From Alphaproteobacteria bacterium (GTDB taxonomy: Bacteria; Pseudomonadota; Alphaproteobacteria; JAAXGF01): DNA of 64,000 bases. Positions 5,732 through 57,476 of the stretch are shown one piece after another. The translations under genes were made by a program, and so were the position numbers. Position 1 is the stretch's first letter, and the number at the start of each line of letters is the position of its first letter. Where the stretch lies: the NCBI GenBank assembly GCA_963555825.3, contig CAUVXB020000002.1:288001-352000 (forward strand), given 5' to 3'. The notes below the pieces were generated by a model that searched no databases, was not told where the DNA came from, and worked only from the letters and a program-made list of their open reading frames with translations.

Positions 5732-6900
5732 ATACCAACGGGCATTAATCAGAACCCATGGGCCCATTTTCGGCGTCCGATCGACATGATCTTCCAGGGT
5801 TGATCGATGAGCCTGTTCCAGGCTTCGCAACACAGCGCGACGATATCGTCGTAGGTCTTGAATATCCTGTTGGAAAGCCAGTTATCGCGCATGAACTGCC
5901 ATATGTTTTCGACGGGGTTCAGCTCGGGCGCTCTTGGTGGCAAGAACATCAATGTGATGTTGGATGGGATCTCGAGCCTGCCGGTGGTGTGCCATCCGGC
6001 CCGGTCGATGATGAGTACAGCGTGAGCGCCTGGTGTCACCAGGGCCGAGATTTCATCAAGATGCCATTGCATGGCCTGAGTGTTGCAGCGGGGCAGGACA
6101 AGGCCCGCACCGACACCGCGCGCGGGACAGATGGCACCAAAGATATAGGCCGACTTCGTGCGTTGGTCCCGGAGCGCCGTGGGTCGGCTGCCGCGTCGCG
6201 CCCAGCGCCGGGTGAGCATGGTTTTCTGGCCGACCCGGGCCTCATCTTGCCACCAAATTTCTATCGCGGTGTTGACCGGGAGCCTGGCTCGGATCTCCCC
6301 CAACCCGGCGGGGAAGTTTTTTTTAAATCCTCGACGGCAAACTCGTTCTGCCCCTTGTGGCGTGGTCGCGCCGATATCTTGCGAAACCCCAGCGCCCTCA
6401 ATTCACGGCCCACCGTCGTCTCATCAACCGAAATGCGGAACTCTTCGAATATCCAATGCGCCAGGTCCTTTCGGCGCCAACGCACGACACCGTGGATCGC
6501 CGGAATCGGTCCGCTCTCAACAAGCCGAGCGAGCGCTTGTCGCTGCCTGTCATTGAGCTTGGCCGGCTTGCCTGTCGCCTTGCCGTCAATCAGACCATCC
6601 GGCCCCTTGGCGTTGAAACGGAGAACCCAGTCACGGACCACCTGGAGCCCGACAGTACCGATCCGCGCCGCCTCCGTGCGACGGCCACCATCGTAAATCT
6701 CAGCCAGCGCAAGAAGCCGCCGGCTCTGTCCAGCATCCTTCGACGCCTTGGCTAACCGCCGAAGCGCCGGACCATCAAAATCTTCCCGTAACGCAACCGC
6801 TCTGCCCATGGCGAACCTCCGTATCAGTTCGCCTCATTGATTCAGACTTCTTGCCGCTTGGGAATCCCCTAAATGAGTCTCCTTCAATGCTCGATGGTAT
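5732..6900 (-). mobile_element. IS630-family insertion sequence
   Basis: Imperfect TIRs ATACCAACGGGCATTAA / ATACCATCGAGCATTGA with TA at 5733-5734 and 6898-6899; two-ORF transposase. Confidence 0.9.
5749..6809 (-). CDS. IS630 transposase (orfA 6261-6809 plus orfB 5749-6303, joined by -1 frameshift)
   Basis: HTH-containing orfA; DDE motifs WQDE, IDRAGWH, PELNPVE in orfB; slippery TTTAAAAAAAAC at 6316-6327 (minus strand) in the ORF overlap. Confidence 0.88.

Positions 6901-45575: not shown

Positions 45576-45579
<4 letters not shown>
44845..45579 (-). CDS. N-acetylmuramoyl-L-alanine amidase (Amidase_2, AmpD/AmiD-like) with peptidoglycan-binding domain
   Basis: LHYT, VSAHY, AWHAG, SIGVE, GHSD, DPG. 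Confidence 0.94.
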
Positions 45580-47405
<1,826 letters not shown>

Positions 47406-47408
47406 GGC

Positions 47409-47951
47409 CTAGCCCGGCCTTCTCACCATGGACAGGCGCGTCATCGCGTCGGGCGGAGCCGAGCCGCCAGGAGAAGGCCGCCGAGCGTAGCCTGGGCTAC
47501 GCGCAAGGCCTTCGACGCCGCGGGCGGCCCGCCCGGCGCGACCCTTAAGGGCGGCGGATCTCGGACGACAGGCCGCGTCAAAGCGCTTGCCCGATGCGCG
47601 AGTACTCACTTGCACGATTCCACGGTACGTAGGACGGCCTTGCGCGGTCGTCCGGCAAGGCGCCCGGCGCGCCGTGATGCTGGGCGCATCACAAGCGCCG
47701 GGCAACGCCGCCGGCGGCCGCGCAAGGCCGCCCTGCGGGTCGCGTTTCCCGTCCCCTCGGGGCGTCGGGAACGCTCTGCGATGCCCAGGCATCGCCGTCA
47801 CGCCCCCGCCTGCCGAGGAAACGGGAAACGCGATCCTGCGTGCCGTGGAATCGTGCAAGGGAGTACTGGCATCGTGGCCTGCACGCTTTTCCTCGCCTGT
47901 CGTCCGATATCCGCCGTGCCGCACCTGTCCATGGTGAGAACTCCGGGCTAG
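47409..47951. mobile_element. Non-autonomous fold-back element (MITE-like, nested palindromes)
   Basis: 32-bp TIR (29/32) with CTAG at both ends; multiple internal long inverted repeats; no recognisable protein. Confidence 0.8.
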
Positions 47952-48676
47952 CCGGCGCCGCGGCCGCGGCGAATCCGGGCGTAGGCCTCGTTGATCGTGG
48001 CCAGCTTGGCGTTGGCCACGTCGATGAATTCCTGCGGCATGCCCTGCGCCATCAGCTTATCGGGGTGATACTCGCGTACCAGCTTGTGGTACGCCGCCTT
48101 GGCCTCGGCGGCGCTGGCGCCGGGCGCGAGTCCGAGAATATCGTATGGATTGGTCGCATCCGGCGCGTCGTGGCCGGCCGAAATTCGATCGAAGGTCTCC
48201 TGATCGAAACCGAAGATCTCGGCAACGCGCCGCAGGAAGGCGAACTCGTTGGGATGGATGACGTTGTCGGCGCGGGCGATCTGGAACAGCCCGTCAAGCA
48301 ATTCCTCGAGCACGTGCGGACTGTCGCGGAACAGCTTGGCGACTTGGCGCGCATAGGGCTCGTAGCCGGCGGCGGCGCGCTTCGCCTGGTCGTAGAGCCG
48401 GCCGACGTCGCGCGTCGCCTGGGGCGGCACGCGGAACAGCCGTTTGAAGGTATCGACCTCGTCGCGCGTGACGACGCCGTCGGCCTTGGCCATCTTGGCG
48501 GCGAGCACGATCACCGCGACCGAGAACGCGGCCTGGCGCTGCTCTTCGCTGACCGGGCCCTTGGCAGCGCGCATCTTGTCGACGGCGTGTCCGGCCACCG
48601 TGCCGACGAGCGCGCCGATCGGGCCGCCGAGCGCGAAGCCCGCGGCACCGCCGACAATCTTTCCCCAAATGCTCAT
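47948..48676 (-). CDS. djlA: DjlA-like co-chaperone (TerB-like plus J domain)
   Basis: N-terminal GG.AGF..GGP.G, AKMAKADG, YHPD. Confidence 0.85.
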   Translation of the reverse strand: MSIWGKIVGGAAGFALGGPIGALVGTVAGHAVDKMRAAKGPVSEEQRQAAFSVAVIVLAAKMAKADGVVTRDEVDTFKRLFRVPPQATRDVGRLYDQAKRAAAGYEPYARQVAKLFRDSPHVLEELLDGLFQIARADNVIHPNEFAFLRRVAEIFGFDQETFDRISAGHDAPDATNPYDILGLAPGASAAEAKAAYHKLVREYHPDKLMAQGMPQEFIDVANAKLATINEAYARIRRGRGAG

Positions 48677-55834: not shown

Positions 55835-57476
55835 CCCGCATTTCCCAAGTATCGTCGATATTCAGTGCGGCGAGAAGGCGATTCTGCTATAAGAATCATG
55901 AAGTTGTAGCATACATGGAGCGGCGGATATGGCACACCCGATGGGTGAATCGAAACCGGGGTGCCTTCGGGTCGTTTTTGACCGTCGATTGAAGCTTGAA
56001 TTCCACGGTTCCAAGATCACCTCTGATGCCGGGTTGCTCGCCTACCGGGAGCTTGACGATGCCCTCGGCCTGACTGAGATGGCCGAGGGTGTTTTCCAGG
56101 ATAGCCGTACCGGCAAGAACGGATGGCACGGCATGACGGGTCAGTTTCGCCAGTCCGTTTTCGGGCGCCTTGGCGGCTATGACGATGTGAACGACGCCGA
56201 CCGTCTGGGACGCGATCCCGCCATGCGCTGGATTGTTGGCGGCAAGGCCATCGAAAGACAGGCCGCTTCCACCAGCCAGATGGGACGCTTCGAGACGGAG
56301 CTATTGGCCACCGACGAGAACGTTGAAGCCTTGGTCGACATGAACGGGGTGTGGATCGACAAGGTTCATGACCGCCATCCGCCGAAGATGATCATTCTCG
56401 ACATGGACAGCAGCGTCAGCCCGACCCATGGCGAACAAGAGGGAACAGCGTACAATGGTCACTTCGGCTGTACCTGCTAGCATCCGCTATTCCTGTTCAA
56501 CCAGTTCGGCGACTTGGAGAGATGTTCCCTGCGCCCCGGTAATGTTCACAGTGCCGACGGATGGCGGAATGTTCTGGAGCCGGTGGTGATGCGCTATAAG
56601 GAAAGGAAGGTGCGGCTGTATTTTCGTGGCGATGCCGCCTTCGCCTCACCGGAGATATACGAATATCTCGAAGCCGAGGGATTACTCTACGTCATCCGCC
56701 TCAAAGCGAACGCGATTCTCCAGCGGAACATTGCCCATCTGCTTACGCGACCTGTCGGTCGCCCGCCCGACCATGTTCGCCGTTTCCACGCCAGCTTCAG
56801 CTATCAGGCCGGATCGTGGAACAAGAAGCGCCGTGTCGTGGCCAAAGTGGAGTGGCACCCCGGCGAGCTGGTTCCTCGCGTCGGTTTCATCGTCACTAAT
56901 CTGTCGCGCCCTACCAAGCGGGTGGTGGCGTTCTATAATCACCGTGGCACGGCGGAGCAGCACATCAAGGAAGGCAAGAACGCCATCAACTGGACCCGTC
57001 TGTCATGTCGCAAGTTCCGCAACAATGCCGTTCGGCTCCAGCTTCACGCCCTGGCCTACAATCTGGGCAACTTCATGAGGACACTGGCTTTGCCGAAGGA
57101 GGTGGAGCACTGGTCGATGACGACGTTGCGCGACAAGCTGGTGAAGATCGGGGCCAAGGTTGTCCGACATGGCCGCTACGTTACGTTCCAATTGGCTGAG
57201 GTGGCGGTGCCGAGGGACCTGTTCCGGAAAATCCTGAGCTTGATTGATGATCTGCGACGAAGACCCGCTCCGGCGTAGGCCGAGGGAATCGACGGCGAGG
57301 AGAAAGCGACAGGAGAGGTGTGTCTGGATGGCGAGAAAAATGACCGAGTGGCCTTCCAAGCGCGGGCCGATTACCAAAATCATGCCATCGGATGGCTGCA
57401 TAGGGGATACAGTTCCCTTGGCGGTGGGAAAGTGGTACGATTTCCACGAATTTGGATGGTATATGGGGAATGTCGG
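55835..57476 (+). mobile_element. IS1380-family insertion sequence
   Basis: TIRs cccgcatttcccaa / ccgacattccccat; 5-bp target duplication GATAG at 55830-55834 and 57477-57481. Confidence 0.92.
55929..57278 (+). pseudogene. IS1380 transposase with one in-frame amber stop at 56478-56480
   Basis: TSDAG, LDMDSS, RGD, RG.AEQ.IKEGK; both ORF halves are in the same frame. Confidence 0.88.

Follow-up and report, generated by a model that had tools for sequence, protein, structure and literature searches.

In the window (the whole stretch of 64,000 nucleotides that was analysed), a 543-base fold-back parts a djlA-like gene from an uup-like gene, which raises the question of what it is, how it came there and whether it serves to control uup. 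The fold-back consists of two small non-coding mobile elements, one lodged within the other, and is selfish DNA of a familiar kind. We put at about 85% the probability that it is a MITE, A, carrying an unrelated MITE, B, in the loop of a small hairpin, that it was moved in trans and that any effect on uup is only incidental. A preliminary description of this DNA had read it as a mobile, TA-flanked, non-autonomous, palindromic composite, as we do, but had derived it from the nesting of a single unit. That derivation we could not uphold: arms 2 and 3 together form one B core, arm 1 belongs to A, and the three arms, described as related, showed no significant similarity (same-orientation local alignments, z = 1.3, -0.7 and -0.4 against 300 dinucleotide shuffles). 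The best likeness was that of arm 1 with reversed arm 2 (z = 3.0, 2/300 shuffles as good). The features of the locus are as follows.

45576..47405, minus strand: uup-like ABC-F ATPase gene, 609 aa (NCBIfam NF050005, Uup, 596 bits, cut-off 900)
47410..47411, no strand: left duplicated TA, part of the CTAG at 47409-47412 (TA counts in the A copies)
47412..47948, plus strand: whole composite (A carrying B), 537 bp between the TAs; 16 colinear genomic copies of 531-577 bp, 88-100% identity
47412..47443, plus strand: left terminal inverted repeat of family A, 29/32 complementary to the right end when CTAG is included; kept in all 50 copies
47444..47541, plus strand: arm 1, the long internal hairpin of A, in both folds and in short A copies without B
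47552..47572, plus strand: left half of the sub-terminal stem of A, pairing with 47896-47916 (20/21)
47593..47601, plus strand: left half of the small A hairpin that carries B in its loop; uninterrupted in short A copies
47600-47601, plus strand: decayed left target copy of B, GA; same junction in all 16 composites
47602..47866, plus strand: family B MITE, 265 bp, with a 33-bp terminal stem and a two-hairpin core (arms 2 and 3)
47630..47735, plus strand: arm 2 of the B core (helices 2-3 of alignment A1; 17/37 pairs change on both sides)
47736..47838, plus strand: B core, arm 3 (helices 6-9 in alignment A1; 19/32 pairs change on both sides)
47867..47875, plus strand: decayed right target copy of B, TG (47867-47868), then the right half of the small A hairpin
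47896..47916, plus strand: right half of the sub-terminal stem of A (repeat search and recount)
47917..47948, plus strand: right terminal inverted repeat of family A (pairing recount, copy alignment)
47949..47950, no strand: right duplicated TA, which with 47948 makes the djlA stop codon, TAG on the minus strand
47948..48676, minus strand: djlA-like co-chaperone gene, 242 aa (NCBIfam NF006948, 146 bits, cut-off 162)

The pairings given in the preliminary description were borne out exactly when recounted by coordinates. Segment 47409-47440 is complementary to 47920-47951 at 29/32 positions, 47601-47629 to 47839-47867 at 27/29, and 47552-47572 to 47896-47916 at 20/21; the repeat search listed the same arms, and the palindrome at 47542-47551 is also present. 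Folded as RNA, the minus strand reached -420.1 kcal/mol against -274.0 (s.d. 7.3) in shuffles (z = -20.0, 0/100 as good) and the plus strand -411.8 kcal/mol (z = -21.2, 0/100 dinucleotide shuffles as good). Both predicted folds contain the closing stem, arm 1 and a three-way junction with arms 2 and 3.

The element sits in a CTAG at the djlA stop codon, as had been noted, and taking out the element together with one TA leaves djlA TAG, GCC and uup ATG on the minus strand. The djlA-like open reading frame stops at TAG, which overlaps the right TA of the element; the uup ATG lies 3 nt past the left CTAG, and the distance from the djlA TAG to the uup start is 543+3 nt. Read on the minus strand, the right A end is directly upstream of the uup start. 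The uup-like frame also matched NF000355 (ribosomal-protection-like ABC-F) at 425 bits, above the cut-off of 380. The composite, or an A copy that gained B later by recombination, would have landed in the TA of this CTAG, 3 nt before uup. The first letter of A is G and its last is C, so that a copy entering C-TA-G restores CTAG on either side of itself; this accounts for the TAG that djlA keeps. The insertion would thus have recreated the stop codon and left both reading frames intact, and its outcome would be a very stable palindrome of 543 nt parting two formerly almost contiguous genes. Taken by itself, the locus is nothing unusual: selfish DNA arrived at a TAG stop codon and parted two near-contiguous genes, both of which stay unbroken.

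Contigs from two runs of different studies bridge both junctions of element and flank with 0-3 differences, showing the site filled. A third run, a metagenome, contains a relative that is about 6% diverged (26 differences in 418 nt). The preliminary description had proposed looking for an empty site in relatives, and one contig appears to show the site empty as expected, joining 47408 to 47950 with two letters between, which gives a 4-nt site; it is a single contig with a shorter side of 30 nt and 90% likeness, and such joints can stem from other organisms or repeats. In this contig (depth 19.9) djlA ends in TGA and there is no TA, which suggests that the TAG allele created the target. The distance from djlA stop to uup start in the relative without the element is 3 nt. 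A second contig from run X15 joins 47413 to 47948 with five letters between two TAs and a side of 58 nt. This remnant, from a single contig, resembles an IS630-type excision footprint, yet is one letter over the simple expectation and carries no weight in our reading; IS630-type excision is described as proceeding by 2-nt staggered cuts (PMC2170065). Among 12 genomes of family-level relatives, 10 gave matches (that of G008 weak), djlA was found in 9 and uup lay within 1.5 kb of it in none; with the two genes not adjacent, these relatives can supply no empty site. Paralogous empty sites were uninformative, as only 1 of 61 reconstructed sites was matched elsewhere, with a 12-nt indel at the junction.

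Copies of A and B in the genome

Further copies had been anticipated, and a search of the element's own genome (6.04 Mb, two contigs) returned matches at 79 places, among them 16 near full-length copies with 88-100% identity and dozens of shorter ones. The shorter copies fall into two kinds: dozens match only positions 1-194 and 461-543 of the element, and two match only positions 193-461. By anchoring on the ends we delimited 50 paired A copies, leaving a few further short or broken copies unpaired. Of these, 16 are composites of 531-577 bp; the remainder are short, mostly 267-271 bp. The A unit is about 270 bp long, with a long and a small hairpin between its 32-bp inverted ends. In the alignment, short A copies have the small hairpin at the place where composites carry the insert.

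Position, orientation and flanking letters of the B insert agree in 16/16 composites. Its two solo copies in the genome have flanks unrelated to A. The flanks of B are decayed here, reading GA...TG in 15/16 composites and TA...TG in the two solo copies; one composite, at C2:2908702, retains TA at the right B junction. The terminal inverted repeats of A (29/32) and B (27/29) are conserved in all copies. A further family, C, has 11 copies of about 264 bp, with a two-hairpin core that resembles that of B (about 77% identical) and with different ends.

The longest open reading frame across the element (171 aa) matched no Pfam family, and neither A nor B encodes a protein. Rfam covariance models gave no family match to the element; all three matches returned came from a single plant microRNA model and reached 22-24 bits, far below its gathering score of 268 (E = 0.09-0.34). 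A search of a plasmid collection with the element gave no match, and a search of the open-access full-text literature found no description of A, of B or of the conserved core of B. A and B appear to be families that have not been described, though of an ordinary kind. Besides hundreds of insertion sequences, this genome of 6 Mb carries at least three MITE families. Palindromes of 270-540 bp at gene boundaries create long spurious open reading frames and break short-read assemblies, which is a warning for annotation.

TA is present on both sides of 28/50 A copies, on the left of 42/50 and on the right of 35/50. Among the 22/50 with an imperfect TA/TA, most have one side changed, and the commonest departure is the same transition at either end. 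Outside the left TA stands a Y in 49/50 copies and outside the right TA an R in 44/50. Both outer bases complete CTAG in 23/50; the other combinations include T...G in 11 copies, C...A in 5 and T...A in 5. Because the outer bases vary independently, the duplication is one of 2 bp, TA within Y-TA-R, not of 4 bp. CTAG is scarce in this genome, with an observed-to-expected ratio of 0.14. Targets of the Y-TA-R type are provided by TAG and TAA stop codons, and 8/50 copies, including the one at this locus, have their TA within the stop codon of a high-GC3 open reading frame of at least 100 codons. Of the other copies, 13 are intergenic and 29 overlap stop-to-stop open reading frames, a count in which genic positions are over-represented.

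The history of the composites is finely balanced. A single nesting followed by transposition as a unit would give equal divergence in A and B, but across the 16 composites likeness is 97.0% in the B part and 91.8% in the A part, so simple nesting and amplification fits poorly. An alternative, to which we give an even chance, is that B spread among A copies already in place, through gene conversion or recombination or through repeated site- and orientation-specific insertion, with no transposition of the unit. Besides the unequal likeness, three observations favour such a spread: composites are scattered among short copies on a tree of the A part (about 260 sites, calculated without support values); paired end variants at mirror positions are common to composites and short copies (for example 3+3 at 19/525); and a 42-bp hairpin insertion, 100% identical, occurs in two composites and one short copy and in those three A copies only. 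That 16/16 junctions are identical, down to the decayed left target, speaks against independent insertions but is compatible with conversion, and the conservation of the B core across genera means that slower change in B could explain part of the difference between 97% and 92%. Likeness among the short A copies is 90.7%. The family C copies are only 93.7% alike across 11 copies, an observation that counts against slower change in B as the explanation. The history that fits best has B entering A a single time and spreading afterwards through recombination or gene conversion, perhaps with transposition of the composite as well; it stands at about even odds with simple amplification of the unit and slower change in B.

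The B superfamily and its core

B belongs to what appears to be an undescribed, widespread superfamily of alphaproteobacterial MITEs with an unusually well conserved, Y-shaped palindromic core. It has homologues in relatives and in a large number of MAGs. Scanning species-representative genomes for the conserved tip of arm 2, we obtained at least 112 loci. Among the matches listed, nearly all are MAGs labelled Alphaproteobacteria, Rhodospirillales, Rhodospirillaceae, Kiloniellales, Thalassospiraceae, Sneathiellales or Rhodobiaceae; four matches lay in MAGs with other labels, at least three of them unlike the element, and none was counted. We fetched 80 loci, of which 63 had enough flank and 57 yielded delimited elements, a few of these truncated or spurious (for example, L091, L099 and L112). 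A typical member is about 262-280 bp long, flanked by TA and built on the same core; outside this genome, TA stands both left and right of the B-type elements. The terminal 33 bp are of several unrelated types. One of these end types is identical at 27/33 and 26/28 positions to ends of the IS630-family (DDE_3) elements of the genome, and another at 21/24. These comparisons scored 36-42, against a null with a mean of 12.4, a standard deviation of 2.5 and a maximum of 31 in 1600 trials.

For the core we aligned 32 non-redundant elements, the B of the window and 31 loci, leaving out two family C copies of the same genome, which did not belong to the loci. The preliminary description had suggested looking for covariation among copies, and the B core has it: 66 of the 105 pairs in the consensus structure show compensatory change on both sides. 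Pairing holds in 95.9% of cells across the 32 sequences, compared with 78.8% in shuffles, and the covariation score is 0.470 against 0.144; none of 500 shuffles reached any observed measure, and sliding the partners lowered pairing to 34-42%. Covariation is strongest in the terminal stem (29/33 pairs), where it may reflect the need of both ends to fit one transposase. It extends into the internal arms, with 14/21, 9/12, 4/8 and 5/6 pairs in helices 2, 6, 7 and 8, respectively. Many unpaired core positions are invariant, those under the search pattern by selection of the matches.

The two strands carry this structure alike. In the pairs common to both strand folds we counted 32 G-U and 36 A-C cells, with no strand bias, and the fold was better on the analysed strand in only 11/32 sequences. 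An excess of G-U in the plus orientation (136 vs 43) proved to be a folding artefact, since the reverse fold mirrors it and the common pairs show none. Constraint that is alike on both strands would point to any role of the core being at the level of DNA, not RNA.

For a MITE it is unusual that conservation is stronger in the core than in the ends and that these ends come from different IS630 lineages. It is possible, though less likely than not, that the B core (about 200 nt, arms 2 and 3 on a 33-bp stem) is no passive filler but a selected, portable module, kept in sequence and pairing over several orders of Alphaproteobacteria and repeatedly re-equipped with the ends of different IS630-family elements. 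Its role in the DNA might then be that of a hairpin or cruciform aiding excision or integration, or of a scaffold for protein binding, and nested composites and the spread of B among A copies may be intermediates by which the core swaps ends. In this superfamily the core is conserved above the transposase-binding ends, the reverse of what MITE biology predicts. This makes it testable whether MITE cores are functional in transposition, and whether MITEs change their mobilising enzyme by nesting and recombination.

Candidate mobilising enzymes

The most likely movers of A and B are cut-and-paste DDE transposases of IS630/Tc1-mariner type acting in trans, enzymes that would insert at TA and duplicate it. 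ISY100, of the IS630 family, is described as inserting almost exclusively at TA and duplicating it (PMC2170065), and a precedent for a bacterial MITE driven by an IS630 element is RUP, which has been attributed to IS630-Spn1 (PMC2229807). The genome contains at least 150 matches each to DDE_3 (IS630 family) and DDE_Tnp_1, and four IS630 groups could be delimited, with 72, 71, 17 and 7 copies of about 1.16-1.19 kb each. As the ends of some of B's relatives match IS630-family ends, the attribution of B to an IS630-type enzyme is reasonably grounded. That of A draws on two features, the TA duplication and the target preference, and here an IS5-family enzyme is possible.

A transposase with matching terminal repeats, proposed as a check in the preliminary description, did not turn up for A or B in this genome. 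Scanning with up to 5 mismatches in 21-22 nt, we found none enclosed by A, B or C ends. The pairs returned were neighbouring MITEs or a single A copy interrupted by an IS5-family element (DUF772 + DDE_Tnp_1); one candidate parent, C1:1432601-1434489, holds CBS and CoA-transferase open reading frames and no transposase. Compared with the four IS630 groups, the A, B and C ends scored 8-20, within the null; they shared matches of only 9-13 nt with low-copy IS loci and, read by eye, were not convincingly matched by any end among 19 DDE_Tnp_1 representatives. For the C end, a match of 12 nt proved to lie in a 123-bp mini-element upstream of an IS5-like gene and not in an IS end. In other MAGs, solitary A ends at two loci (L039 and L035) are remnants. 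One genome, G041, has about 110 B-type MITEs; its 1629-bp forms with MITE ends as boundaries, considered as parents, are MITEs with an IS110-family element in arm 2, and a MITE beside a DDE_3 gene there is not bounded together with it.

We weighed two other classes of enzyme against the IS630 type. IS5 groups of the IS427/IS1031-like kind favour targets of the Y-TA-R type, which is the target consensus of A, and besides the abundance of DDE_Tnp_1 matches there is a 939-bp IS5-like element in 6 copies that, by eye, has a terminal word of 9 nt in common with A. A GC-rich match of that length is, however, within chance, the null maximum corresponding to about 15 matches; a duplication of 4 bp would need matching flanks, and C and G stand outside the TA in only 23/50 copies; and the superfamily of the nested partner B has other members with IS630-type ends. 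We therefore regard mobilisation of A by an IS5-family rather than an IS630-family transposase as unlikely. REP/BIME-like palindromes moved by a RAYT (Y1) transposase, or an association with palindromes of the IS200/IS605 type, would account for the strongly palindromic character of the elements, and the genome has three Y1_Tnp matches. REPs lack the long terminal inverted repeats and the duplicated TA seen here, the elements measure 270-540 bp, and, by comparison of coordinates, none of the three Y1 genes adjoins a listed copy of A, B or C; this origin is barely credible. A definition of REP/BIME as short palindromes without terminal repeats or target duplication, beside a Y1 transposase, does not describe these elements. 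For A and B alike, an IS630-type enzyme acting in trans is the preferred reading.

Effects on uup and related systems

A regulatory consequence of the insertion for uup is plausible; a regulatory purpose for the element is not supported. Any such effect would be a side effect and not a designed function. The 3-nt spacing of djlA and uup in the relative without the element suggests translational coupling, and candidate effects are the loss of this coupling, the burial in the terminal stem of the 35 nt before the uup ATG, and cleavage of the long duplex. In the predicted fold of the minus strand, those 35 nt form one side of the terminal stem. We found no promoter-like or terminator-like sites at the element.

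Alternatively, the djlA-uup transcript might contain the element as a functional structured RNA, retained for its control of uup, whether it acts as a substrate of RNase III, as an attenuator or as an insulator of translation. Its predicted fold is very stable, it stands between a stop and a start codon on the template of the coding strand, and base pairs in the B core covary strongly. RNase III is reported to cut the Correia elements of Neisseria. A contig of 258 nt from an RNA-seq library runs from 47817 to 48076, over the junction of element and djlA, which is weak evidence of read-through there; it has a depth of 3.3, with 6 differences and 2 gaps, and could be DNA carry-over. In runs X15 and X17 (RNA), the depth over the element is not readable as expression, as it comes from contigs and multi-copy sequence. 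Against a function as RNA stand the at least 50 copies in varied contexts, the equal G-U and A-C cells together with the 11/32 sequences folding better on the analysed strand, which is the pattern of a DNA palindrome and not of an RNA, the result of the Rfam scan at E up to 1, with microRNA noise as its only yield, and the lack of promoter- or terminator-like sites found. Without a strand bias in the wobble pairs, nothing supports an RNA function, and we consider a regulatory RNA highly unlikely. A selfish composite, whose effects on uup, if any, are incidental, remains our reading of the element.

Small size with no conserved open reading frame, terminal inverted repeats, TA duplication and many dispersed copies, all observed here, are the marks of a MITE. 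Of the marks of MITEs derived from IS630, the A and B of the window have TA duplication and IS630-family transposases in the genome, whereas their ends are unlike those of the four IS630 groups delimited and of the low-copy IS loci. Palindromic repeats in intergenic regions or at gene ends, with TA termini, are also described as ERIC/IRU and Rickettsia palindromic elements (PMC2229807), which are shorter (about 100-200 bp) and occur in other taxa; the Rfam scan, in a collection that may not include such DNA repeats, revealed no similarity to them.

Like A and B, RUP lacks coding capacity, is bounded by terminal inverted repeats, inserts at TA, is present in many copies and has been attributed to an IS630-family enzyme in trans (PMC2229807). 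The duplicated TA and the IS630-type ends carried by members of the B superfamily are the RUP-like traits here. RUP differs in its length of 107 bp and in having ends that match a known element, IS630-Spn1, whereas the units here are 265-270 bp long (537 bp when nested), have long GC-rich hairpins and have no cognate IS among those found. The Correia or NEMIS elements of Neisseria, compared by description and not by sequence, are likewise TA-flanked fold-back MITEs at gene ends, described as co-transcribed with their neighbours (PMC2229807). They too have long and short forms differing by an internal segment, but measure about 107 and 155 bp and are confined to Neisseria. The long Correia form differs by a 50-bp internal sequence, whereas the composite here differs by a second complete MITE. 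Nested insertions are familiar from the Stowaway-type plant MITEs, derived from Tc1/mariner, which are non-coding, fold back and duplicate TA. A and B share with Stowaway the TA duplication, the fold-back, the lack of coding capacity and the placing of one MITE inside another; Stowaway elements are eukaryotic, whereas the genome studied here has a single composite junction in 16 copies, on several A backgrounds.

Insertion sequences of the window's genome

The genome that contains the window (G000; contigs C1 and C2) carries an extreme insertion-sequence load. Genome-wide, there are at least 150 matches to DDE_3 and at least 150 to DDE_Tnp_1, and the IS630-family groups include two of 72 and 71 near-identical copies. 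Both domains are represented in the window:
about 5842-6258 (C2:293842-294258), DDE_3 match
56382-57065 (C2:344382-345065), DDE_Tnp_1 match

The latter belongs to an element present in about 25 copies, every one of which has a single in-frame TAG within the transposase match (another example is C1:305421-306104). This TAG could reflect an arrangement of two ORFs, a defect shared by the copies or recoding.

Insertions and mini-elements associated with the MITE families

A hairpin insertion of 42 bp, 100% identical throughout, occupies the same position in three copies of family A, the outer, TA-flanked MITE of about 270 bp. Two of these are composites, with the 265-bp family-B MITE inside, and one is a short copy lacking it. 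Within G000, the insertion is present only in these three copies:
C2:1554307-1554348
C2:2908883-2908924
C1:608695-608736

We also observed a 123-bp mini-element that has CTAG flanks and termini of the type found in family C, a MITE related to family B, and that lacks the two-hairpin core common to families B and C:
L081:1033-1155 (G000 C2, about 746557-746679); an IS5-like transposase ORF, present as a single copy, begins a short distance downstream

In G041, another alphaproteobacterial metagenome-assembled genome rich in B-type MITEs, arm 2 of the MITE holds a 1361-bp IS110-family element (Transposase_20 and DEDD_Tnp_IS110). Because at least three copies, each with a total length of 1629 bp, carry it at the identical point of arm 2, our data suggest that this element targets the conserved hairpin of the MITE. 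Such copies lie at:
L195 (G041:C4:147541-149369)
G041:C9:165259-166887
G041:C16:163520-165148

Possible horizontal spread of family A and the state of MITE ends

Family-A copies in G004, a genome of the same family but a different genus, are 88-93% identical to the window copy. DjlA proteins from relatives within the family are far less alike, at 63-73% identity, and the search for DjlA gave no match in G004. The contrast hints that the MITE or its driver spread horizontally.

Where the flanking TA is changed in G000, its outer base has in most cases undergone one and the same transition. The left flank of family A is CA in 6 of 50 copies and the right flank TG in 7 of 50; for family B, nearly all right flanks are TG. 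The frequency of CTAG in G000 is 0.14 of expectation, and the recurrent transition may mean that mutation at (C)TAG is biased in this CTAG-poor genome.

At the djlA-uup site, occupied in the window by the composite element at 47409-47951, a second contig of a relative diverged by about 6% (sequencing run X15) joins 47413 to 47948, with five letters between two TAs. Although one letter beyond the simple expectation, this single contig resembles in shape an IS630-type excision footprint.
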